Below are positions 1 to 16,232 of a stretch of DNA of 16,232 nucleotides, piece by piece. The translations under genes and the position numbers were made by a program. Below the pieces are notes generated by a model, which saw only the letters and a list, made by a program, of their open reading frames with translations, ran no database searches and was not told the origin of the DNA. This DNA is from Paraspadella gotoi (taxonomy: Eukaryota; Animalia; Chaetognatha): positions 1-16,232 of the forward strand of contig JBJCIZ010000068.1 of the NCBI GenBank assembly GCA_051294375.1. The letters are read 5' to 3'. Positions within the stretch are counted from its first letter, which is position 1; the number at the start of each line of letters is the position of its first letter.

Positions 1-1317
1 TGGCATTAACTTCGCCGAGAAAATTGAGGCCTCGCCTCCAATAAGGGGCTCCTGTGATGGCCGAAGAAATTGTATCGATTGTATCTTCCCAACCTCGCCG
101 AGTACATAAGTCGGCGGCATCGACCCATATTAGTGGCACCAGGATAGGTGATGACTGGAAAAATTCGAAAAGGTAAGTCCGTTGAAGATCATCAGGCGTT
201 CGCGACTGGATGCTTTTAGAATTTAGCGAGGTCGCTCATTAAAAGCATTATTTTTTGTAGCAATGTGGAAAACGCGAGCATCACAATAAAAAGAAAGAAG
301 GTCAATTTCAGTTTTATCTAGACCTGGTAGAGGAGTGTGGTATGCGACGCTAAAGTCGTTTGATTTTGAAATCAAATTCCACAATTCATCCAGACCAGTT
401 TTATCTCTAATGATGAGACCGTGTGACCGGCCGTCTCGTAAGAACGAGGGAAGATTGTGCAAAGGAATGTTAAACGGGTCTCCACAAGAGGAGAAAAACG
501 AATCAGACGCAGCCGGAGGATATTTTGGATGAGGTAGGCCGCGCATGTCCATAAGTCGTGTCGCGAGCCTAGAATGAAGATCGCGATCTTGGACACACTG
601 ACCTGGAAACAACCTGTCGTCTCCTGCTGCAATCGTTTGGCAGGCAGAATACATATCTTCCACCTCGGTTTCGCCTCGCAGGAATGACTCAGTCAAGATA
701 TCTGTGCGAGCTTTACAGACAATTTCGTAGTACGCCTCCTGGCAAAGGTATTTCCAACACCTTCGCAGCAGGTGCGAACAAATCGACCGACGTAGTACGG
801 AGAAAATTTATTTTTGTAATTTGGGATTTCATAAAGAGAGGAGAAAAAGGAAGAAAAACGAAGTTTAGCAAAAATAGTCTCTGGATATTCATAAGAGTTT
901 TATGATAAAGCTGATAATTATTTTGATTTCTTGGCGAGGAAAGTTTCTCGCAGCCTCTTTTAAAGTGTCGGTTCGCCCCGCGCCACTGATGAAATAATCG
1001 AGAAGAATGACGACTGGGCAAAAAAAAATAGTTGAGCTGAACAGCCCATGAAGTCGACCCAGCCCAAAAAACGTTTTCATTTAGAATTGCGCCGATAAAG
1101 TCATTTAAGTGATGATCAGTGAAGATAGTCATCATCGCGCGTGCAATGAAATACAGTCGTTGACGGTTGTCTCGTGTTTGTTTAGGAAAGAGTTTTAAGA
1201 TACCGACAAACTCTTCCACTGTCTTTTCTGGCGTTGAAGACTGAATGCGCTTTAAGTATTTTTAGAATTTTACATCGTTTAAGATTAATCAAGAGCTTTA
1301 CAGGTGAAGATTCAGCA
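1..1317 (-). CDS. Probable ORF3 C-terminal half (frameshift-fragmented): helical domain plus degenerate second exonuclease-fold domain
   Basis: Overlapping minus-strand ORFs (1182..1400, 713..1219, 889..1080, 223..696, and an open frame running off position 1) join into a protein-like sequence with single indels, several at homopolymers. LIIRDKTGLDELWNLISKSNDFSVAYHTP...EIDLLSFYCDARVFHI and VDAADLC...IDTISSAITGAP follow the spacing of a DEDDy fold but lack the ExoI acids. It could be a pseudogenised copy. Confidence 0.5.
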
Positions 1318-2938
1318 TTAATTGCTGGTCGCGCACAAGCGCGTTTGTAAATTAGTTTTCTTTTTAGTTTTAGATTTGTTAGTTTTGTTTGAAGTATCAA
1401 TTTCTATCACAACTGTCTCCATGACATCAGTGTTCAAATCTTCAGTCATAGTGGAAGTTGTTGAAACTGTTGCATTTGTGACAGTAGTTGTTATTGTAGG
1501 TATTGTTTGTTTAGATATGTTGGCTGTTTCTGTTGCCAATGAAGAAACGGACACGGATAGGCGTTGAGAACGACTAATAGGATTTGTTTTACAATAAACT
1601 ATTTCAAAGTTTTCGTTTGGTCGTCGTTGTTTCAGTCTAGCAATTGTGATTTCACGTNNNNNNNNNNCTAGCAATTGTGATTTCACGTCGTTTGCGTCTT
1701 ACCATTTCTTCTTTCTCTGCTTGGGCAATGCGTGCATTAAAATAACTGGCGCATTCTTCGAGCGCACCAGCAGAGTTAGGTTTTAAGCTGCCAGATTTAC
1801 CTTTCGCATAAGTTTCTACAATTTCGTGAAGGGGAGTACCGAAAAAATGGGAATCGTCGCTGATNNNNNNNNNNAACAAGTCAGGCGATAGCCCGAGAAT
1901 CTCCGAGATGTCAGCAACGGCGTCCCTTGCTGCTTTGGCATCAAGGACAGCATAACATAACTTACGCTTAGACAGGAGAGAGTGTTTTTCGCAATAATCG
2001 GACCTATGGTCACGATGAAAGTTTCTCTTGTCAAGGAAACGATCCTTGAAAGCAAAACGAAAGAAAAAACCAAGAGAAATCTCAATGAAATCAACCCATT
2101 TGCCAGTTTCGATGTACTGACGAAGCGCGGAAGGGCTATCTCCAAGGGATTGACAGAACCCATAGAGAAAGCCAATTTCGATTGCTTTTATTTTATTTTT
2201 CTCCCGCGGCAAGATTTGGAGAATTTCGCAAATCTCCTCAATATCGATTTTAACATTCTTACCAGTAAAGATGGCTTTATTGTGACAAAGAATTTCGCAT
2301 AAAAACTTTGGAGGACCCTCACGCAAACAGGACTCGCCAATTTTCGAATGTAACTGATAGAGGACGTGAATTTCTTCTTGTTCCACCATCGCGGATAGTT
2401 GCAGAGTTGCACCCTTACCTTCGCTGTCGAAGCCTATAAGAACAGGCTTGTTGCTTTTTACAAGCCATGTGAGGAGCCTTAACCCCACCTGTTCGTCGTC
2501 GGCATGATTTCGTACATGAGTGATTTTCTCTGGCATGAGAGTCTCTAAGGTGTTTTCCTTTTTCAATTCTCGAAATTCAAAATTTTGATAAGCGTCCTCG
2601 ATTTTTGAATTGGGCGCTCCCGCTTGTTGCGGAATACGGTCGAGGTCGACAAGAAGCTTTGCCATCTTTAAATCTGATGGAATCTCAATCTCGCGAGTTT
2701 CTTTTGAAGGCAAGACCTCCGTGCTATACGAGCATATAAACTGTCGTACGGGTTTAGGTGACTGATCCGGTTCAGGAGGGCGTTGTGGCACCGAACAGGG
2801 CGACTTTGGAGAGAGTTCAACAGACTCCGGCCTCGCGGTAGGCCAGTTTACCGGCTCGTAGACAGGTGTGACAGCGTTATACACTGTCGACATTGCGATA
2901 GCTTGAAGGCGCTGCCTAATATTAGTTTTCTTTCCCAT
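1318..2938 (-). CDS. ORF3 N-terminal half: Pro-rich leader, DEDDy (DnaQ-fold, WRN/RNase D/EXD-like) 3'-5' exonuclease, helical stretch, Thr-rich linker
   Basis: ExoI IGFDSEG (D 2426-2428, E 2420-2422) followed by ATLQLS. ExoII IFTGKNVKID (D 2243-2245), then SL...LDK...RSDY. ExoIII LSKRKLCYAVLDA (Y 1952-1954, D 1940-1942). ATG 2938 is in an AAAATGG context. ORFs 1652..2953 and 1318..1686 fuse once the 21-bp duplication flanking the 1658-1667 gap is collapsed. Confidence 0.85.
1637..1688. other. Assembly gap with duplicated 21-bp overlap
   Basis: CTAGCAATTGTGATTTCACGT is present on both sides of the 10 Ns (1637-1657 and 1668-1688). Other 10-N gaps are at 1865-1874, 3842-3851, 8194-8203 and 8452-8461. 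Confidence 0.85.
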
Positions 2939-3405
2939 TTTAGTGGGCGTCAAGTAAAAGAATAGCTTTTAAACGAACTAACTAAAAAGAGTAAAAACAA
3001 GAATAAAACCAAATCCAAATTCAATAGCTCGGTTTCAAAATAAAGAACTAGTACACAAAGCCTAACACTAAAAGACTTTGGCAGATAGGCCAATAACAAA
3101 TAAAATTCTAGCGCGCATTTTTAGTTTAAGAGATCTCTTATATATATATATATTTTTTTGTTTAGGCAGAATCAAACTACAGGCATTCACAGACATTCAC
3201 ACAAGCATAATTATTATAAAAAATTGTTTATTTGATGGCCAATTCGTTATTATCCATAAGCTTAAGCGGTAGTGAACCAGCTAAATTGAAACATTTTGAG
3301 CTTGGAATCTAGCTTTCATGAGAGCATAAAAACAAGTTGTCACGTCTGACAAACTACATGTAAGTATAAAAGATGAAATATCTACATAAAGTAAAAACAT
3401 TCTAC

Positions 3406-5800
3406 TTATTTTTTCGGTGTAGAGGCCAACAATGGACCTTGCGAAGAAGACGGACTATCAGTTTGTAAATTTTCTACTCTAATATTTCTAATTGATTCTA
3501 AAGGAGAAATATGTTGGTTATTTGATCTAAGTCTTGCACTTCGTCTCACAACCATTTCTTCGGGCTCTTTATTTTTATTTACAGATGGTTTACTTTTAGT
3601 TCTCATCCTATCAACCAATGGGTGAGGGGGAGGAGGTCTATGAAATTTAATAGAGGTTCGTTTAGCTAATTTTTCAGGTGTAGTTACATTATTATCAATC
3701 AAGTCGCCCTCTGAAAATGGCGTAAAAACTTCATCAAAAGATTTAGAGCGATTTCTAACATTACTCTCTGATGCACCGAAAGAATTAATACTCTCTTGAG
3801 AGTCTAAAACAATAGTCTCAGAAAAGTTTCTGAGTTTTGTANNNNNNNNNNGTATGTTTTGAGCATTTAGCTCCGCTGATATCGAATGAGGGGCAGAAGG
3901 CCCTCTTATTAGGTCTTGATTGGTTTCTGGATCAGGTAAATAAGCCTGCAACCTTGCGGTAGCATTATTTAGGTCGCGAAGTAGGCTATCCATATTTGAG
4001 GCCTGGGCTTGAGGCCTTACAATAAGCTGTGCTGCAGAAGGCAGCAATTCCCGATCATTATTGCTTGCATTGATTACAGCATACAAACTAACATTGGGAG
4101 TGTCTTTTTTGATCAGAGGTAGTTTCATTAATTTGTTGTAATTAGCATTTACAATTTTTAATTGTTCACGATTTTTACGAATTAATTTACCATGTTTGTC
4201 TTCACATATATAGGAAGTGCCTGGGCCTCCTGTAGGGCTACGGCATCTTTCCTTAACTGTGATGGGGCCGCGCCAACGCGGTTCTAATTTTCCTCGTCTA
4301 TCGTCTGGGACCCGCTCATAAACGTGGTCACCCACATCAAGAGGAGCACCTTTGGCTTTCTTATTGTAATGCTCTTCGTCTTTTGCTCTTTTTGCATTTT
4401 CCTTCGATTGGGCCTCCTCTTTTGTTTCCAAGACCTTTTGGCGCATACTCTGAACATAGTCATTTAAGGACTTATGTTTTATTTTAATTTCTCCACCTAA
4501 TGGAGGATGAGGCACTGGGGGAGGCCTCCCAAAGAAAAGCAAAAATGGAGTCATATCGTTTTTTGCAATGGGTGTAGTGTTGTACACCCATTCAACATAT
4601 GGCAAGTGGTCTACCCATGATTTACCATATTGTTGAAGACGCTTGGTTAAATCTTTTATTAGTGTTCGGTTTTGTCTCTCTACATTGCCCTGAGATTGGG
4701 GTCTGTATGCGACACTAGTTCGCTTTTTGGTCCCTAGGACCTTACAAGTCGCATTCATGATTTCAGAGACAAACTCACCACCATTGTCAGACGTTAGACG
4801 TTTAGGGGGGCCCGCAAAGCAGACTAAATTCTCAAAGGCTTTAGCGATGCCAATGGAGTTTTTGTTTCTAAGCTTATAAAGCTTAATATACCCAGAAAAT
4901 ACATCTTTGAAAACTAAGACGTATTTAAAGTTTCCGGGAGCAACTGGAAGTTGCAAAAGATCACAAACAACATGGTCGAACACGTTTTCAGCAATAATAG
5001 GCTGTAAGAGAGTTTTCACTTTCGGTTGCGGCTCTCGCATCTGATCACAGATAGAGCAATTCTTTGTAAATTGAGCAACATCTCGCCCAATAGTGGGCCA
5101 AATGGCATAGCGTTTAATTTTGTCTTGCATTTTGTTGTTACTTGGATGCCCAGCTAACATTGAGCCATGGCTATCCTTCAAGACATTTGCGACAAGGCTA
5201 TCCGGTAGCACTGCTTGCAACACCGGAGAATGGATACCTTTGTTAAAACCCTTACGATACAAGGCACCCTTTAGGATAACAAATCGATTAAAGTTCTTTA
5301 AATACCACTTCTCAGGAAATGACCTAGGCGGCCTCTTCCTGATTTTGACAAACTCCATGACTTCTGCCATGGTGGAATCATCTTCCTGTGCGCTTTTAAG
5401 CGCCAAGGCTTCACATTCAGCATTCAATTGTACAACCCTAGAATCATCTAGGTCATCGATACCCAATAGGGCCCAATTACCATTCTCTGCATATAATGCA
5501 TATTCATCCTCTTCAGAGGGCTCGTCATCCTCCTCGCCTCGTCTGCTCATTGCATCCGCGTCAGAATGAATTTTGCCCTGTTTGTATATGAGCTCAAAAT
5601 CATACTGGTCAAGCTCAATGGCCCACCTGGTACGCCTACCAGTGGCATCTTTCTTTGGATCGACTTTCTTCCAAGAAAGCAAGGGTCTGTGATCAGTTAT
5701 AGCAATGAACGGCGCATGCCTAAGATAATGGGCATTTGCGCGGATTGCCGAAAGCAAGGCAAAAAACTCTCTATCGTATGTAGACCATTTTTGTTGGGCT
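3406..5800 (-). CDS. pol: Pol part 2: C-terminal RNase H, integrase and long low-complexity tail
   Basis: After a 1-nt indel near 5800 the frame reads AQQKWSTYDREFFALLSAI...ITDHRPL...HSDADAMSR (RNase H). Integrase shows HHCC (HGSMLAGH...CSIC), the DDE core (VVCDLL, LTSDNGGEF, GNVERQNRTL) and GPY/F-like KLEPRWRGPITV. No chromodomain is recognised. Confidence 0.95.
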
Positions 5801-7907
5801 TAGAAAGCTTTTTAGATCCATAGGAAATGACTTTTTCTTTCCCCTCAATTTTCTGGGTTAGGACATAACCTATAGCGAGTAGAGAGGCATCACTCTTAAT
5901 GGTAAAGGTTTTTGTAAAATCAGGATAATGCATAATTGCATCCGAAATAAGTGTGCGTTTGAGCTCATCAAATGCTTTCTGATGCTCATCTTTCCAACAC
6001 CATTTTGCACCTTCTACAGTAAGATCAGTTAGTGGCTGAGCAACTTTACTGTAATTCTTGACATATTGACGGTAGTACCCCGTCAAACCAAGGAAGGTTT
6101 TAAGGCGTTTTGCATTTTCGGGCGGGGTCCATGATCGGATCTTTTCAACATTCCGAGGATCGAGAGCTATACCATCTCGCGAGAGCTTATGGCCTAAGCA
6201 CACCACGGTATCATGAACAAAATTACATTTTGAAGGGTTGAGCTTCAAACCAGCCCCCTCTAAGGCTGTGAGCACCTGATCAAGGTGCGTGAGGTGGTCT
6301 TCCATATTGCTATCAGCAATTAGGATGTCATCCATGTAACTGATAACATGTTGTGGGGGTAAACCCCGTAAGACGAGCTGCATGAGGGAACTAAGACAAC
6401 TTGGAGAATTTTTAGCTCCCATTGGAGCAACCTGATATTCCAGGTGCATTGACTCCGTAGAGAATGCAAAAAACTTCCTGTCATCAGGATGTATAGGTAT
6501 TTGCCAAAACCCTTTAGTCAGGTCCATAGAGCTGAAAAACCTTGGATTATCAAGACGCTGTATAGAATCTTCAATCCTAGGTAAAGGGTAGACAACTTTA
6601 TTGCATCTTTCATTGATACGCCTGAAATCGGTAAGGAAGCGCCATCCACCTGATTTCATTTTGACTAATAAAATCGGAGCCGAATAAGGGCTCGTGGAAT
6701 GGCTGATCAAGCCATCAGCAATCATTTCAAATGCTTGCTTGTCTATTACATCACGCATCTCAGGTCGAGTACGGTACGGAGGTACGGCAATAGGAGGAGC
6801 ATCTCTGTCCTTAAGATTAGCTCTATATTGTATAAGATTTGTGCGGCCATAGTCTCTGTTGTGTTTGGAAAAAGCTTTCTCATGCTTCTTTTCCAAAAGT
6901 TCGACAAGCCTTTCCTTATAAGGAAGAGCTTCTTTAGAAAGACCCGAATAATCTATAGACAACCTCTTAGCGCCTGGTGGAATGTCATTTTCCACCTTAG
7001 GTGTTGGTTGCGGTTGGTTATGGTCTGACTGAGATGTGTCTGGAGAAGGATCCATCACAATCTCATCTGGTTCCTCCTCTTGGGGAATATCATCAGCCGA
7101 CTCATAAGCCGAATCACTGCTGTTATAGGAACAGAGCATATCTGTTTTGACAGAATAATTATCGAATGTATCATCATCAGAAAATTCAGCATACCCGAGA
7201 ATGTGTCCGGCTGGAAGCTTCATGCTCACCGGGCTACAATTAATTATCTCGGTCATGAATTTACCATCGTCAATGTGGGCACATGCCCTACATGCCCAGA
7301 CATGGCCTCCCTGATTAAGAAAGGGGTCTGTAATAATAGTTTTGGTTGCACGAGGTAAGTGGTCACTATCAAGTTTAAGTTCGGCATCAAAGTGCATTTT
7401 TGAGAGTCCCGGGATGACAATGTCCTCCGGAACTTGGTAAAAGCACCCTGAAATGTAATGAGACTCCTCAATGAGTGGAGCGGAGTGATTACCCAAGAAT
7501 TTTAGTCGGCCTTCCGAAGGGCAAAGGGAAGCCGAATATTTCGAGAAAAAGTCCCAACCAAGAATGAAGGGCTGGACTAGGCCCTTAACTACCCTACAAT
7601 TGATTCGAAGATAGGTATTATCTATTCTAAATTTTACATTAACTATACCAATAGTAAGGACACGAGTGCCATTAATGGCCTTGCCCTTGGCAGAGAAGGG
7701 ACGAAAACTGCGATCTTTGATCCCAGGGTTGTCACGCAAGAATTCTTCGCTTATACAACTCTTAGTGCAACCCGTGTCGCCAAGTGTGGCGATGTTCCTC
7801 CCTTCTACTCTAATCATAAATTCAGCTTTCCATTTTGGCTTTGGGTCTGGGGGTAGATTATTTTCGACCTCTGCTCGACCCGTAGCAGGATCGGGTATTA
7901 GTTTTCC
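5800..7907 (-). CDS. pol: Pol part 1: aspartic protease, reverse transcriptase, N-terminal RNase H
   Basis: Protease LGDTGC (DTG 7770-7778). RT motifs SPYSAPILLV, WRFLTDFRRIN, YPLPRIED, MDLTKGFWQI, PMGAKNSP and YMDD (6327-6338). RNase H start IKSDASLLAIGYVLTQ. Corresponds to ORF 5697..7817 extended to the frameshift site. Confidence 0.96.
7865..7907 (-). promoter_or_regulatory. Candidate -1 programmed ribosomal frameshift signal (gag-pol)
   Basis: G GAA AAC (7907-7901) sits immediately before the gag TAA. The -1 frame is open into pol (GKLIPDPATGRAEVENNLPPDPKPKWKAEFMIRVEG). A hairpin CGATCCTGCT/AGCAG(A)GGTCG starts 7 nt downstream. Confidence 0.7.
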
Positions 7908-9070
7908 GAAGAATTTTCGGGGGTTGAGTCACGGCCATGGTCCCTTAAGGTGGACTTAGCCTTTCTCCGCTGCTTAACGAACTTTCTGATAGCTTCCTCC
8001 TCACTAGCATTAGCGCCACTTTCTTCATCTGATGTATTAACACCTCGATATCTGTCACGGTTACGATCGCGGTCACGCTCGCGACCATCTCGGTCACGTC
8101 TATCGCGACGGAAGTCACTACGGTTGCCACGGCCCTCGCGGCGATCACCATAGCGATCCTCCTGACGATCGGAACGTCGATCTTCATAACGACNNNNNNN
8201 NNNTTCTCGGTCACGATTGTATCGTTCACGACTGTCATAGCTACTACTTCTCCCTCGATAAGAATTTCGGGAGTATGTCTGACGATTACGGTCACGCCCA
8301 CGATCATCACGTCCCGAATCAGAGGAAAAAGAGGGGCTGCGATTAGGCCCTCGATTTCTATCATGGGTCTCAGTCCTTCTCTTGACCTCTTTAATATCAG
8401 ACATCATATTTTCTAGTTTGGTAGAAAGGCCAGCAATGGCACGTTCTACTTNNNNNNNNNNATCGTCAGCCATTGCGGCACCAGTGAAGGTGACCGATTT
8501 TTCAGACTTAGACTTTGAGGAATCATCCTCCTGAGTCATTTGGACTCGCATAGCAATTTGCTTAGCTTTATTAATATTTCGCTCATCTTCTCCACAACCC
8601 AAGTCAATTGCGTCGCGGTAAGGCTTAGGCAAAGCCATCCTGAATCTGAAGAACAACTCTCGCGCTTTGGGCACATCAGTCAAGTCTTTCTCGTGTTTCG
8701 AGACTTTTCTGATGATGCGAGCAGCCAAGTGATTAAATGATTCTTTACCGTCCCATTCGACAGTTATTTTTTTAGCTTGCCATCGATAAGTCTCTTGTGG
8801 GTCATTAAGAAGCTTAATCATTTCTCGCTTGGTTGCGGCATAATTTGCTCCAAGAGCAAGTTTAAAAACTTCCCTAGATGGCTCATCCAATTTTAAAGGG
8901 AGCCAGTGGAGGCATAACTCCTGTGTCCGAGCATCACTAGATGGGTTAGTGGCTAAAATCACTGCACGTTCAAAGAGAGTTATCCACTCTTCGAAGTCGT
9001 CAGTCTCAGAGTCAAATTTATCAATAGGAATAGAAGAAGCAGCCTTCTCGCGACTAGCCTCGCGAGACAT
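7898..9070 (-). CDS. gag: Gag (capsid-like N-terminus, Arg/Asp/Ser-rich C-terminus, no CCHC knuckle seen)
   Basis: First ATG at 9070 (MSREASREK). Retrotransposon Gag-like segment IDKFDSETDDFEEWITLFE...WLPLKLDEPSREVF. It lies directly upstream of protease. Two N gaps fall inside it (8194-8203, 8452-8461). Confidence 0.8.
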   Translation of the reverse strand: MSREASREKAASSIPIDKFDSETDDFEEWITLFERAVILATNPSSDARTQELCLHWLPLKLDEPSREVFKLALGANYAATKREMIKLLNDPQETYRWQAKKITVEWDGKESFNHLAARIIRKVSKHEKDLTDVPKARELFFRFRMALPKPYRDAIDLGCGEDERNINKAKQIAMRVQMTQEDDSSKSKSEKSVTFTGAAMADDXXXXVERAIAGLSTKLENMMSDIKEVKRRTETHDRNRGPNRSPSFSSDSGRDDRGRDRNRQTYSRNSYRGRSSSYDSRERYNRDREXXXXRYEDRRSDRQEDRYGDRREGRGNRSDFRRDRRDRDGRERDRDRNRDRYRGVNTSDEESGANASEEEAIRKFVKQRRKAKSTLRDHGRDSTPENSSEN

Positions 9071-9975
9071 TGTGACCGATTCGAAAGTCACGTACGAAAA
9101 TTTGCAAGACGAAGTTCACGATTGATGATAAAAGTTAAGAATTGTAGAAATTACGAAGTTGAATAAATGTTTATTAAAACGCTGATAAAAAGGTTTATAT
9201 TTGTTAAAAACAGTCCAACAGGTCAGCGGTGCAGAATACCAAACTAAAACATCTTGCATCGGAAGAGAAGTCCAAAAAAAAAGGAACACCAATCACTCTG
9301 AGGATCATCCAGGTGGCTAAAAATCCCGTCGCTCTGGTCGCAGGAGCCGTTCAAGCCGACCCCTTGTCTCGTCACTTGGGAAGTTGGTGAAATCGCACAC
9401 AAGGACTACACCCAGAGTCTTTGGAGAGAAATGTCTTGGGGGTACCCGCGGATTTTTAGCGGTATAGGGCTAAGCACCGTGCCGAATGTAGAGGCGGACT
9501 TACAATCAGCCGATGGAGTGTGCCACAATGAGGGAGGTAGCCAAGCAAGCCTCCCTCCGACTTCTAAAGCAGGGACTTCAGTTGAATCTGTAGCCAGGTC
9601 GTCAGAGTGTCACATGACAAAGCTAATTGGGCTCCACGAACGTTTTGCCGTCTTTTACAACGCGAATGCGAGGAACTGCGCAAGGTCGCTTCGCAAAACC
9701 CGACAATGTCAAACGTAGACACAACTTCTCCACAAGCAAGATTCGCGAAGTCTCAGGAAGAATTATTTTGAAAGAACAAACACAACTTCACAGCAGGGCT
9801 GAACCCAAAAAGGTGCTGTCATAACAGCCAACTGCTGACGAAAAAAAAGGTCAATCGCCAATCCACAGTACGTCAGGATCAACCCGATAGACCAATGGGC
9901 GATGACGCAAAACTCCAGAGAAAAGAGCGCAGATTGTCAACCGACAGGGTTCTCTACATAAGAATGCAGATAGGA

Positions 9976-9985
9976 CGATGCACCA
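9976..9985 (-). promoter_or_regulatory. Primer-binding site, tRNA-Gly(GCC) type
   Basis: Minus strand reads ...CCAACA-G-TGGTGCATCG. This is complementary to the 3' end CGATGCA-CCA of invertebrate-type tRNA-Gly(GCC); the tRNA sequence is recalled, not searched. Confidence 0.7.
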
Positions 9986-9986
9986 C

Positions 9987-10368
9987 TGTTGGGGGTGGTT
10001 TTATGAAGAATCACGGTGGACGATGACGATGGGCGCTGACCTCTGCGGCGGCGCGATAAGGAACTCCCAACTGATTGGCCACGCGGGAGGAGACCAGCAA
10101 ACGGGCGGCACGGCTTGACAGTCCACGGCTACCTTAATATGTGATCTGCGAGATCGAGAACATAATACGAAAGGAGCGACACCATCGATTAGATTATGGT
10201 ATTCATGCACTTGCCCCATATATTAATAATGGCCACGATACTTAGACTGGAAAACAATGCAAATGAAATCCAAATGTTAATCAAATAATATTCAAAAAGG
10301 TATCACAAAATAATGATTATAATCATGAGTCTTTTAATGTTTCGTTGATCGAGAATTACGCTCCAACA
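9987..10368 (-). repeat. 5' LTR (382 bp)
   Basis: Perfect 6-bp inverted termini TGTTGG (9987-9992) and CCAACA (10363-10368), fitting the TG...CA rule. The inner end is 1 nt from a TGG-starting PBS. The outer end coincides exactly with the abrupt start of satellite sequence. Confidence 0.8.
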
Positions 10369-11640
10369 CAGAGTGGCGCCCACTGACACGGAGTCTCTAA
10401 GGATGTGTGACGGTTTCAGGTGGGCGCCACTCCGTGTCACAAACAGTTATTTTGTGGCTTAATCCCCATATTTAACCCCCGCACTAAAAAGCCCACCTTC
10501 CCATATTTTTTTTTAGATAACAAAAAGATGAATTTTCCATCTTTGTGACACAGAGTGGGCGCCCACTTGACACGGAGTTCTCTAAGGGGATGTGTGACGG
10601 TCAGTGGGCGCCACTCCCGGTGTCACAAACAGTATTTTTGTGCTTAATCCCATATTTTAACCCCGCACTAAAAAGCCCCAGCCTTCCCCCATATTTTTTT
10701 TAGATACAAAAAAGATGAAATTTCATCTTTGTGACACAGAGTGGCGGCCCACTTGACACGGGTTTCTCTTAAGGGATGTGTGACGCGTCAGTGGGCGCAC
10801 TCCGTGTCACAAACAGTTATTTCTTTGTGTTAATCCCCATATTTAACCCCCGCACTAAAAAGTGCCCCAGCCTTCCCATTATTTTTTTTAGATACAAAAA
10901 AGCATGGAATTTTCATCTTTGTGACACAGAGTGGCGCCCACTGACACGGAGTTTCCTCTAAAGGATGTGTGACGGTCAGTGGGCGCCACTCCGTGTCACA
11001 ACACAGTATTTTTGTGCTTAATCCCATATTTAACCCCCGCCACTAAAAGCCCCAGCCTCCCCATATTTTTCTTTTTATAGATACAAAAAAGATGAATTTT
11101 CATCTTTGTGACAACAGAGGTTTGGCGCCCACTGACAGGAGTTTCCAAGGGATGTGTGACGGTCAGTGGCGCGCCACTCCGTGTCACAAACAGTATTTTT
11201 GATGCTTAAATCCCCATATTTAACCCCGCCACTAAAAAAGCCCGCCTTCCCCATATTTTTTTAAGATACAAAAAGATGAATGTTTCATCTTTGTGACACC
11301 AGAGTGGCGCCCACTGACACGGAGTTCTTAAGGATGTGTGACGGTCAGTGGGGCGCGCACTTCCGTGTCACAACAGGTATTTTGTGCTTAATCCCCATAT
11401 TAACCCCCGCACTAAAATAAAGCCCCCAGCCTTTCCCCATATTTTTAGATTTACAAAAAAGATGGGGAATTTTCATCTTTGTGCACAGAGTGGCGCCCAC
11501 TGACACGGAGTTTCGTCTAAGGGATGGTTGTTACTTCACGGTACAAAAGTGGTCGCCTAGCCTCCTGTCAACAAAACAGTATTTTTGTGCTTAGATCGCC
11601 CCATTATTTAAACCCCCGCTCGCACCTTGAAAATTATTTA
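10369..11640. repeat. Tandem satellite A, ~185-bp monomer, ~7 copies, with internal 28-bp inverted repeat
   Basis: The motif CTTTGTGACACAGAGTGGCGCCCACTGAC recurs near 10541, 10727, 10917, 11104, 11289 and 11477 (spacing 185-190). Differences between copies are mostly small indels. Confidence 0.95.
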
Positions 11641-14030
11641 ACCGCTCTCTTTCCAGACCTTCTTTACTTTCTCCTTTATAGTATTATTATTTAGATTCGA
11701 CAATAATTAATGCGGTATGTAGTTTTTAAATACTTTCATCTTTCGTTTTATCACAGAGTTGGTTCGACCATTCGGAGACTGAACAAAAGAGACGGGTTCT
11801 TGCCCGTCTTTATATATGTGAAGTATTTTTGTGTGCTTTGTTACATTTGTTCGCAACAAAATCCGGCAATTTGTTTTGTTTGGTTTTTTCTGGCCATCGT
11901 CTCCCTCCGTGTCCACTTTTCTCACAATAAGTTTTTTTGTAGTGACTCCTCTATATATACGAACAACGATTATTTAAACCCGTTCTCTGGGTGCTACTTT
12001 GACACCAGCTTATAATAAGTCTCACCCTGCGTGATCTGAGAGTGACGAGATTCCCCATAGTATGGTTTATAAATCTTAGCAATATACTCACACTCACAAA
12101 AGAGAAAAGGAGAATGAGAGAGATTTTCAGTCTTTAATGCGATTGAACAACAAAGAGTTGAGAGCGCCCAAGAGCTGAGAGAATCTCTACGTAGTTTGTT
12201 CTTCTTGAGTGAAAATGTGTCGGTAATTTAAAAAACGAGAGCTAATTAAGTAGGTGACCGTCGCTCCACTCCGTGTCACAAACAGTACCCTTATTTATAT
12301 GTGCTCTTAACAACCTCGATTGATGTTATTATCGCCACAGTATTTAACCCCAGCTCTTCTAAACCTCAGATATGTCTTATTTCTTCTTCTCCCTGCCTCT
12401 CGACCCAATATTTAATTATTCTAATACTCGAGAAAGATAATTTTCATCTTTGTGACACTCGCTAGTTAGATGGAACATTTTCTTCTCAATCTCGTTACAC
12501 GGAGTTCTTCATAAGTTGGAGTGTGTTTTTTTGTACTTGTCAGTGGTGCGCCACTCTCGTGTCACAAGTCTCTTATGTTTAAATTTATGTTTATCTCTGT
12601 TGGAAGAACTTACGTACTGCGCGTATGTTATTTTTCGATTTTATCCCCTCCGCACTATTTAACATTAGAAAAAGTGCCCGCAAGCTTCCCATATTTTTTT
12701 TAGATACAAAAGATGAATTTCATGCTTTTGTGGACACAGAGTGGCGGCCAATGACACGGAGTTTTCTTCTAAGGGATGTGTGCGTCATGGGCCAACATCG
12801 CTGTGTGCTCGCGCGATGGTATTTTTTTGTGATGCTCTTATTATTACATGGCAACCATACTCAGTTTAACGCCTTTGCGGCGTGTTCTCTAAATAGATAT
12901 TATAATGACTTCCTATTTGTCATAATGTGGTGACACCCATAAATTATTATTTCTGTCTATATATCATCTGTTATTATATATAAAGAGGTTATGATTCAAT
13001 ATTTCTTCAATTCTATCTAGATGAGACAACCAAGTGCGTTTTCTTGGTGTGGTCTTAAACGTTCCACTTGTATCACTAGGTTTAGATTGCTACGTAAGAG
13101 GGAGAATAAGGCGTGGATAATAATTGTAAGAGAAACGAGAGGGGTACAGAGTGAAGAGAGAGAGCACTAAAATAAATGAGAGACATACTTTGTGTGCTTA
13201 CATAGCTTTATTGTTAATATGAGCTCATTAAAAAAATGCCACTCATTCTTTATATATTATAACCTGTCCCGCCACTATAAATCAGACAAACCGACTTTTA
13301 CTCATACCTCTCCTCTGTTATGGAGTAGTACCATAATATGCAGAGAGATATTAAGAATTTTTTTCATTTGTCACTCTTAGTTTCTTGGGCGGAACCCATC
13401 TTCGGTTTTCCCGGTGAGTTTCTCGATAAGAGTGTTATTTGTCTTGTGCGTGTTTCTAGCATGTCGAGAACACAGCGTGGGCGCGCGTTTTTCTTTGCTT
13501 TTTTAACCGCTCTCGTTGTCACATAATCTCATGTTGGTGAATTATTATTGGGTCGTTGCTCTCCGCTCTCGTATATTTAATTGTATATAACCCTTTATCA
13601 ACTTCATTTTAACTAATAGCAACGCTCGGTCTCTTTATCGGTCCGTATATTTTTTATTCATGTATTATTACAATATGAAGGAAAAATTTCAGATTTGTGC
13701 CGGTGTGTGTTATAACCAGGTGTAGTTTGTATCGTCCTTTTTACATTGGCCGCACTAGACACAAGTGGTTTCTTCGTTCTAATATAGTTTTAATAGTAGT
13801 GTTTACTCATGGTTCTAGTGGACAGAGGCGACACACATAGTCGTTCTCGTTCACAGAATACATGTAATCGTTTTTTTATGTGCTTCTTTATATAGAGTCA
13901 GCCTGCAGAGTAATATGCTATAAACCCATAAAACTCTAAACGGCGAAACAGATAAAAGAGACCCGACCGAAAGCGGCAGATTCATCACACATTATAATTG
14001 TGATAGTATGTAGAAATAATTTGTATAAAT
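11641..14030. repeat. Highly degraded or noisy continuation of satellite A
   Basis: Recognisable remnants include CACTCCGTGTCACAAACAGT (~12267), TTTTCATCTTTGTGACAC (~12441), GTCAGTGGTGCGCCACTC (~12539) and GACACAGAGTGGCGGCCAATGACACGGAG (~12733), with fainter traces to ~13900. Confidence 0.65.
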
Positions 14031-16232
14031 AGTTTTGATAAAAAGATATTTAATAACTGTCCTCACCCAATTTTAACAAACCTCGATTGATGTTATTTTG
14101 CAGAAGTATTTAAACGTTTTTATTTTCTTTTATTTCTTTAAAAATATCGTTTTCCGGTTGTTTTAGAAATTTTTTATCTCTTTTTTACATTGAAAAAAGC
14201 GTTTTTCTTTGTTTTTAAAGTTGTTATCTTCTTTGGAAATATGCGTCTGCCGGTGTATTTAACGTTTTTATTTACTTTTAACTTTAGAAAAGTCGTTATC
14301 GGTGTTTTTTAACTCTTTTTTACATTGGAAAAAACGTTTGCGTTTATTTTTTAAAGTTTTTTATTTCTTTTCTACATTGGGAAAAAATCGTTTTCTGTTA
14401 TTTTTAAAGTTTTCATATTCTTTTTACAGAGAAAAAAGTCGTTTTCTGGTTGTATTTAACGTTTTTATCTATTGAGAGTGAGAGAAAGCTACATTAAAAT
14501 TAAAAGAGAAAAGAGGAGAGAGAAAGGAGGACATAAAAATAAAAGAGAGGAAATTGTTGTTGTTTTGATAAAAAGATATTTAATAAACTCTCCTCACCCA
14601 ATTTTTAAACAACCTCCGCCCCGATGATGTTCATTTGCAGAAGTATGTAACGTTTTTATTTCTTTTTTCTTTTAAAAATATCGTTTTCCGGGTGTTTTAG
14701 AAATTTTTTTATCTCTTTTACATTGGAAAGCGTTTTTTCTTTGTTTGTTAAAGTTGTTATCTCTTTGGAATATCGTTTGCCGGTGTATTTAACGTTTTTA
14801 TTACTTTTTACTTAGAAAGGTTCGTTTATCGGTGTTTTTTAACTCTTTTTACATTGGAAAAAAACGTCTGCCGCTTTTTTTTTTAAGTTTTTTATTTCTT
14901 TTTACATTGTAAAAATCGTTTTCGTTATTTTTTTAAAGTTTTTATATCTTTTTTACAGAGAAAAAGTCGTTTTCTGGGTGTATTTAACGCTTTTATATCT
15001 ATGAGAGTGAGAGAAAGCTACATAAATTAAAGAGAAAAGATGAGAGAGAAGGAGACAAAAAATAAAAGGAGGGAAATTTGTTTGTTTTGATTAAACGTTA
15101 TTTAAAAGAATATTTAAAACTGTCCTTATCAATTTTAACAACCTCGATGATGTTTATTTGCAGAAGTATTTAACGTTTTTATTCTTTTTTTCTTTGAAAA
15201 TATCGTTTTCCGGTGTTAGAAATTTTTTATCTCTTTTTACATTGGAAAAAGCGTTGTCTCTGTTTTTAAAGTTGTTATTCTCTTTGGAAATATGTCTGCC
15301 GGTGTATTTTAACGTTTTTTATCCTTTTTACTTTAGAAAAGTCGTTTATCGGTGTTTTTAACTCTTTTTACATTGGAAAAATCGTTTGCCGGTTTTTTAA
15401 AAGTTTTTATTTCTTTTTTACAATGGAAAAAATCGTTTTCTGTTATTTTTAAAATTTCATATCTTTTTACAAGAGAAAAAGTCGTTTTTCTGCTGTATTT
15501 ACGTTTTTATCTATTGAGAGTGAGAGAAAGCGCTACATTAAAATAAAGAAGAAAGAGGAGAGAGAAGGAGACATAAAAAATAAAGAGAGAAATTTGGTTT
15601 GTGTTTTGATTAAAAAATATTTTATAAACTGTCCTCACCCAATTTTAACCACCTCGATTATGTTATTTGCAGAAGTATTTAACGTTTTTATTTCTTTTTT
15701 CTTTTAAAAAGTATCGTTTTTCCGGGTTTTAGAAATTTTTTATTCTCTTTTTACATTGAAAAAGCGTTTTTCTTTGTTTTTAAAGTTGCTTATCTCTTTT
15801 GGAAATATCGTCTTGCCGGGTGTATTTAACGTTTTTTATTACTTTTACCTTTAGAAAAGTCGTTTTCGGTGTTTTTTAAACTCTTTTTTTTACATTTGGA
15901 AAAAAAAACGTTTGCCGTTTTTTTTTTAAGTTTTTATTTTCTTTTTACATTGGAAAAAAATCGTTTCTCTGTTATTTTTAAAGTTTTCAATCTTTTACCA
16001 GAGAAAAGTCGTTTTTCTGTGTATTTAACCGTTTTTTATCTATTGAGGTTGAAGAAACTACAATAAAATTAAAGAGAAAGAGAGAGAGAAGGAGACATAA
16101 AATAAAAAGAGAAGGAATTTGTTTGTTTTGATTTAAAACGTATTTAAAAGGATATGTAATAACTGTCCTTACCCAATTTTACAACCTCATTGATGTTATT
16201 TGCAGAAGTATTTAACGTTTTTATTTCTTTTT
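14031..16232. repeat. Tandem satellite B, ~530-bp AT-rich monomer (>4 copies) made of ~40-50-bp subrepeats plus a purine-rich block
   Basis: ACCTCGATTGATGTTATTTGCAGAAGTATTTAACG variants occur near 14080, 14612, 15141, 15651 and 16185. The GAGAGTGAGAGAAAG block recurs near 14474, 15003, 15516 and 16045. Confidence 0.93.

Follow-up and report, generated by a model that had tools for sequence, protein, structure and literature searches.

A Ty3/gypsy-type element of Paraspadella gotoi encodes an ORF3 protein that joins a likely active DEDDy exonuclease to a helical domain and a second, predicted non-catalytic exonuclease fold

Introduction

DEDDy exonucleases encoded by a third ORF have been described in the bdelloid LTR retrotransposons Juno and Vesta, in which the ORF3s are located after pol (Rodriguez, Kenefick, and Arkhipova, 2017, PMC5408684). 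That paper already raised a mut-7-like role for the DEDDy ORF3, and its text reports no clear link of the rotifer DEDDy ORF3s to copy number. Maelstrom and EXD1 are given there as non-catalytic DEDD domains of the piRNA pathway that retain RNA binding. PMC11347159 describes the helical domain of Nibbler/MUT-7 as RNA-binding and proposes that it brings the enzyme to RNA bound by Argonaute.

Here, a 16,232-nucleotide stretch of DNA from the chaetognath Paraspadella gotoi (assembly GCA_051294375.1, contig JBJCIZ010000068.1, positions 1 to 16,232; the window) was analysed. It carries, on its minus strand, a Ty3/gypsy-type element with gag, pol, and then ORF3. Like the Juno and Vesta proteins, ORF3 has an RNase D-like exonuclease of the DEDDy type whose residues are intact, and it occupies the ORF3 position after pol, replacing env. 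Unlike them, it continues into a helical domain and a second exonuclease fold, predicted to be non-catalytic; the main text and the supplement of PMC5408684 mention neither a tandem arrangement nor a second domain that is helical or inactive, the two sets being compared by description. When the literature, largely that outside subscription journals, was searched for a tandem or inactive-domain form of the DEDDy ORF3, only the rotifer paper and some general remarks (PMC6338049) were found. The DEDDy ORF3 as such is already known from rotifers, and the tandem form with a second, non-catalytic domain is apparently unreported.

Organization of the element

All coding features described here are on the minus strand. 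The gag-position ORF, with an Arg/Asp/Ser-rich C-terminal part, was located at 7898–9070, pol (protease, reverse transcriptase, RNase H, and integrase) at 3406–7928, and ORF3 at 1–2938. The pol stop and the start of ORF3 are separated by a non-coding spacer of about 468 bases (2939–3405). Pfam analysis of pol revealed RVT_1 (E 2.7e-31), RT_RNaseH, and rve (E 5.2e-12), with the protease below the cut-off. The domain order protease, reverse transcriptase (RT), RNase H, integrase behind a gag-position ORF assigned the element to the Ty3/gypsy type. No long direct repeat representing paired LTRs was found in 1–10400, and the 3′ end of the element lies outside the window.

The gag and pol ORFs overlap at 7896–7928 in different frames, a G-GAA-AAC stretch is located just ahead of the gag stop, and run X9 crosses the junction without a gap; the junction is likely a programmed -1 frameshift. 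The pol frame change near 5800 lies at the same place as one gap in the runs. At 3406–4260, pol encodes a long tail past the integrase, and many of its relatives are 1500–1950 aa long. PF04500 was found in five of the listed pol relatives and PF01391 in one.

Searches with the RT region revealed 679 relatives among 3623 candidates. The identity was 70–79% in 58 of the 120 RT relatives listed, nearly all of them ENA assemblies with uninformative names. Since the RT relatives are numerous and without informative names, they point to a large unnamed lineage. An ORF3-like domain was carried by none of the 120 pol relatives compared. A link to the Oikopleura Tor elements was considered and is only a guess; the text of PMC4402516 describes env ORFs, with 0 occurrences of 'exonuclease'.

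In runs X1, X3, and X7, the contig depth of the integrase–ORF3 part was as much as double that of the RT–protease–gag part (27.8 versus 11.5–20.7; 104 versus 54–66), whereas the two parts had equal depth in X9. Joints within window positions 5940–9016 connected 5962 to 8581 (X1) and 5939 to 9016 (X3), with short sides of 23–28 letters. Together, depth and joints weakly suggest internally deleted versions of the element that keep ORF3.

Upstream of gag, the region 10014–10294 showed raised depth and many loose ends, and a joint from 10013 to 10295 was present in X1 and X3; we read this region, whose ends are approximate, as a dispersed repeat or an LTR segment with an insertion. A 187-base satellite of 6.2 copies (10366–11526) adjoins the 5′ side of the element and decays rightwards, and an AT-rich satellite with sub-repeats of 40–90 bases occupies about 14000–16232.

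ORF3 as a single reading frame

ORF3 consists of at least 955 residues and runs past the window start. The contigs of X1, X2, and X3 each showed 17 single-base gaps relative to the window in 7–1636, at full depth. X7, which was assembled in shorter contigs, showed 15 single-base gaps among the listed records, with loose ends at 199/208. X1 and X2 do not differ in depth or in the length of their contigs, and the two may represent a single data set. Twelve of the 19 gap rows were located directly, and the places of the remaining ones were derived from depth bins and frames. At the N gap 1637–1667, all four public runs skipped 31 bases, a duplication in the window. Because the run contigs differ from the window by the 17 single-base gaps and the 31-base duplication, the frameshifts in ORF3 look like assembly errors, and no other breaks occur within the window. 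The run contigs merge copies; what they show is the form prevailing in the organism, which need not be the exact copy in the window. Words sampled from 1–3000 were recovered at 77–81% in 9 of the 11 listed runs.

The initial annotation, drawn from 1–1260, had joined several peptides into one frame after correction of indels. The contigs of the four runs bear this out: when ORF3 was read from 2938 to 8 with X put at each break, 0 stops were found in 955 residues, and single frames across 7–1636 had 17–30 stops. The quoted peptides themselves all lie in minus-strand frames of 1–1260, but two of these frames overlap at 1071–1019, and a few residues were probably taken from the wrong frame.

No transmembrane segment was found in the 955 ORF3 residues (best 19-residue hydropathy 1.31), and none was evident in the tails of the relatives; the window's own C-terminus is located outside the window. 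Since the residues covered are without a transmembrane segment, ORF3 does not appear to be env-like. Pfam, NCBIfam, and PHROGs searches with the ORF3 pieces gave no meaningful match, and sequence searches of solved structures with the window's ORF3 pieces gave nothing real.

The first exonuclease domain

The first exonuclease domain (EXO1, 1910–2533) is a predicted 3′–5′ exonuclease of the DEDDy type in which the catalytic residues are present. They comprise the ExoI D-x-E (D at 2428, E at 2422), the ExoII D (2245), and the ExoIII Y-x3-D (Y at 1954, D at 1942). Over 50 family rows, these residues were D in 45, E in 46, D in 41, Y in 30, and D in 30; the five columns had 4, 4, 4, 17, and 19 gaps, and most non-matches were gaps of partial sequences. 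In the third column D thus predominates, with E in only four further rows, whereas the motif given for Juno and Vesta is DEED (PMC5408684). Behind EXO1, a conserved extension (1600–1909), to which the relatives match to about 1600, is followed by a Ser/Thr-rich low-complexity linker (1400–1560; S or T in 22 of 50 residues). The linker is longer and Pro/Ser-rich in the relatives.

Profile–profile comparison of the EXO1 family with a DEDDy profile gave 97.6% (E 3e-12, 160 columns). A profile built from 70 bacterial DEDDy domains aligned all three Exo motifs of EXO1, and 0 of 200 shuffles scored as high. Atlas analysis grouped EXO1 with PF01612-type eukaryotic clusters at 0.95–0.96, PF01612 itself being found on 18% of one cluster. 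Weak profile matches were obtained with WRN (E 0.2) and Nibbler (E 0.36). Pfam gave no match for the window's EXO1 piece, and two of 20 relatives matched at E 0.017 and 0.041. Modelled from its sequence alone, EXO1 reached a pLDDT of 37.5, too low to be useful, and fold searches with this model returned noise. The best Atlas matches to EXO1 (window 1877–2557) were unnamed proteins of 213–214 aa; among the few members with a record, Basidiomycota were commonest. Judged by its motifs, EXO1 is likely an active 3′–5′ exonuclease.

Relatives of ORF3

With the EXO1 piece as the sole query, a HMMER scan covering all of 1.84 billion representatives revealed 49 relatives at E 0.001 or better, all unnamed. 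The five longest of these (1099–1242 aa) also matched the window's C-terminal pieces, with E 1e-17 to 2e-38 in a search confined to these 49. The C-terminal module, which consists of the helical domain and the second exonuclease fold (EXO2), was present in the same order in all five relatives that reach more than 750 residues past EXO1, and it begins in two partial ones; the other 41 of the 49 are mostly too short for its presence to be judged. In P0195 (565 aa), EXO1 is joined almost directly to EXO2, without the linker and the helical part; this protein may be a natural short form, an internal deletion or an assembly effect. P0173/P0227 have a charged region after EXO1 and no module in 722 aa, and P0185 and P0189 showed no clear module within the length covered. 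The full EXO1–helical–EXO2 layout is not universal in the family. In every protein carrying the module, the module is fused to the conserved, intact nuclease.

The pairwise identity of the module was 21–33% among the relatives and 23–28% to the window's pieces. The module was kept at only 21–33% identity and is therefore held to be under selection. A profile built from the relatives only (seven homologue stretches, 463 positions) was searched against 778 six-frame pieces of the window. Five pieces matched (E 3e-18 to 1.2e-5), all in 1255–20 and in profile order, and the next best piece had E 0.48; the window covers the profile up to position 430 of 463. Pfam, NCBIfam, and PHROGs searches with the 12 rows of the module alignment gave no meaningful match, and the module profile had 0 matches to E 10 among the sequences of solved structures. 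No longer ORF3-type protein was found by word index among 322 and 4420 candidates, pattern scans of metagenome and viral contigs revealed no relative, and Atlas analysis of window 226–807 gave no usable match.

A cluster look-up of ten relatives returned none with a name. The full-length ones were found on contigs of 4.0–4.6 kb without genomic context, and we infer their tie to retroelements. The cluster contigs of P0181, P0182, and P0183 were nearly equal in length (about 3960–3973, 4068–4157, and 4056–4561 bases) and only slightly exceeded that of the ORF, which is what a separate transcript of ORF3 would produce. Contigs that barely exceed the ORF and have no context would also fit a passenger or host-serving gene, that is, an exonuclease which was captured and either restricts the element or has become domesticated, without any gain to the element. 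However, one 6130-base contig of this organism spans ORF3 and the integrase of pol, ORF3 is intron-free and begins 468 bases after pol, and the internally deleted versions of the element appear, though weakly, to keep ORF3. A gene of this kind is considered improbable here.

Structure of the C-terminal module

The helical domain is located at 545–1330 (ends approximate), and EXO2, a predicted DEDDy fold without catalytic acids, at 1–465, with its last helix beyond the window start. An AlphaFold2 model was built of the module of the relative P0183, which is 27% identical to the window's pieces, from a 12-row alignment of seven relatives and five window pieces. The model had a pLDDT of 89.9 and a pTM of 0.83; its residues 1–260 were all helices and its residues 283–463 formed a mixed domain, the helical domain thus comprising about 260 residues.

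Foldseek analysis of the model revealed 23 matches at E 0.001 or better, including Rrp6, the Nibbler exonuclease domain, trypanosome RNase D, Egalitarian, and WRN. Nibbler had the best E-value among the single-domain matches (3.7e-5, rmsd 2.9). Viral DEDDy proteins were matched in a structure search of a viral library. When the model was compared with 48,161 chains, the highest Z scores, all on residues 283–463, were those of WRN (18.7), Nibbler of Drosophila (18.2) and of Aedes (17.9), RNase D (18.0), and Pol I (17.7), followed further down by EXD1 (15.9) and Egalitarian (13.1); a repeat comparison gave the same result. WRN was aligned over 175 residues and the Nibbler exonuclease domain over 179, both with rmsd 2.7. 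By this model, the top five matches appear tied within 1 Z unit, and Nibbler is not singled out. The top 50 rows of three structure searches were taken up by exonuclease matches, and the absence of a Nibbler N-terminal domain entry from these top rows says little about the helical part.

Profile–profile comparison gave EXO2 a DnaQ/RNase D-like fold with E 2.8e-5 over 133 columns, and 0 of 40 column shuffles scored as high. Single-sequence hhalign with the window's EXO2 gave E 0.034 (0 of 30 shuffles as high). The profile of 70 bacterial DEDDy domains did not detect the window's EXO2, with at best 7 of 200 shuffles as high. Taking the model and the profiles together, we regard the second exonuclease fold as real and predict it to be non-catalytic.

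A third exonuclease at 1145–600 was also considered, but 11 of 30 shuffles reached its score and the model shows helices in this region, and the idea was abandoned. An origin of EXO2 as a recent duplicate of EXO1 is unlikely: the two had no pairwise similarity, and their profiles matched over only 28 columns at E 0.014. In a tree of 42 rows (12 EXO1, 6 EXO2, and 24 of the 70 bacterial domains, with no eukaryotic references), EXO1 and EXO2 formed separate long-stemmed clades that were not sisters.

The initial annotation had placed a helical domain before an exonuclease of the DnaQ fold and had likened the pair to Mut-7/Nibbler/EXD3. This order, which is that of Nibbler, MUT-7, and EXD3, was recovered in the P0183 model, and the AlphaFold and Foldseek check that it proposed, run on the relative's module, returned matches of the DEDDy/DnaQ type with the Nibbler exonuclease domain among them. 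The likeness held for the layout and for the place of Nibbler among the top matches; it was weakened by the tie with WRN and RNase D (Z 17.9–18.7) and by the absence of MUT7-C. Unlike Nibbler, MUT-7, and EXD3, the ORF3 module is without catalytic acids, has an intact DEDDy domain in front and is encoded by a retroelement. Most members of that family have MUT7-C, whereas no such Pfam match was found in 20 relatives of ORF3, and the tails in five of five were short and low-complexity. The WRN exonuclease and RNase D gave top-scoring folds for EXO2, but they share only 9–16% identity with it, and ORF3 has no helicase or HRDC domains.

Active site of the second exonuclease fold

The ExoI triplets of EXO2 were D-L-H, A-H-H, G-L-H, H-Y-H, V-F-R, V-F-H (P0195), and A-Y-H (window, 345–337). 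D was present in one of the seven and E in none, and His was found at the E position in six. At ExoIII, with the register set by eye in six relatives, Tyr was present in none and was replaced by His in all six, and Asp was present in one; the window's own EXO2 end and its ExoIII lie beyond the window start. A Cys-x-Arg motif is located ahead of ExoIII in 6/6 relatives. The window has Trp at this place, in a codon for which all four runs read another letter. The His and Cys columns were invariant in the five full-length relatives and were also present in P0195.

Because the catalytic residues of ExoI and ExoIII are lost, canonical two-metal catalysis by EXO2 is very unlikely, and the conservation of His and Cys speaks for an altered function more than for a plain loss. 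The profile alignments place A-Y-H of VAYH at the ExoI position, which had already been read as non-acidic, and the motif columns of EXO1 and EXO2 agree with the earlier proposal of an intact exonuclease upstream in the same protein and a second fold that has lost its catalytic acids.

One explanation for such a protein is a pure decoy, in which a captured and inactivated Mut-7/Nibbler/EXD3 protein would occupy the partners or substrates of the host enzyme as a dominant negative. The lost acids of EXO2 and the leading single-domain E-value of Nibbler would fit, as would the domain order, shared with Nibbler, which is likewise without MUT7-C in drosophilids (PMC11347159). However, the module is always fused to an intact nuclease, P0195 does without the helical part, and the His at the ExoI Glu and ExoIII Tyr sites, together with Cys-x-Arg, points to a different role, possibly that of a metal site; a pure decoy is poorly compatible with this and seems to us quite unlikely. 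The same His and Cys may instead form a zinc site or an alternative catalytic site, as in Maelstrom, which would make ORF3 a nuclease of two activities. The invariance of these columns is consistent with this, and the Cys-His-Cys zinc motif of Maelstrom was noted in some rotifer DEDDy ORF3s too (PMC5408684). A repurposed site is nevertheless given little weight, one of the five relatives having Arg at the ExoI His position.

Like EXD1, Maelstrom, and Egalitarian, EXO2 appears to use the DEDD fold without its canonical chemistry. Those three, unlike ORF3, are host genes with other partner domains, and we know of no report in which any of them is fused, within an element, to a DEDDy domain that is active.

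Putative function of ORF3

The intact nuclease, the flexible linker, and the non-catalytic module read best as an effector with a binding module. ORF3 would then be a long accessory protein in which a flexible linker connects a likely active DEDDy exonuclease to a helical domain with a predicted non-catalytic DEDDy fold. The helical–EXO2 module would likely bind RNA or host small-RNA complexes and bring EXO1 to them, and silencing of the element would be weakened as a result. Host small-RNA complexes are placed first as the target because the module has the Nibbler/MUT-7 layout; RNA of the element itself would be an equally plausible target. We tentatively favour this reading of ORF3 as a counter-silencing nuclease with a binding module, at a probability of about 0.4. 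It is weighed down by the structural matches, which do not single out Nibbler, and by the relatives without the helical part (P0195) or without the module (P0173/P0227).

ORF3 may otherwise serve the life cycle of the element, with EXO1 trimming 3′ ends and the helical, non-catalytic module binding, packaging or transporting the element's RNA or cDNA in the manner of Egalitarian. Processing of the 3′ end of element RNA was the first possibility named by Rodriguez et al. (PMC5408684), who also state that many such elements replicate without any ORF3, which argues against a helper. In Egalitarian, the exonuclease-like domain makes contact with RNA and can do without its putative catalytic residues (PMC13186709). 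Egalitarian chains were among the structural matches of the module (Foldseek E 1.5e-4; Z 13.1), but the match is weaker than those of WRN, Nibbler, and RNase D and covers EXO2 only (model 285–461). The low-complexity tails of the relatives (32–51 residues in five of five) are Arg/Ser/Asp-rich, like the gag tail of this element, and would suit such a helper. We rank a helper of this kind only slightly below the counter-silencing reading, as possible though somewhat unlikely.

For the counter-silencing nuclease, a broader and rather doubtful extension would be that a widespread, undescribed gypsy-type lineage captured a Mut-7/Nibbler-like module, remodelled its active site for binding through His and Cys, and joined the module to an active exonuclease, giving an inhibitor of piRNA/siRNA silencing. 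Few candidates exist for counter-defences that animal retrotransposons themselves might encode against small RNAs, and whether there are any is still an open question. The ORF3 family includes intact natural proteins with a built-in contrast between a domain with and a domain without catalytic residues, and its putative role is testable by ordinary biochemistry and reporters. In proteins unannotated by Pfam, it would add a new layout to the DEDD pseudo-nucleases represented by EXD1, Maelstrom, and Egalitarian.
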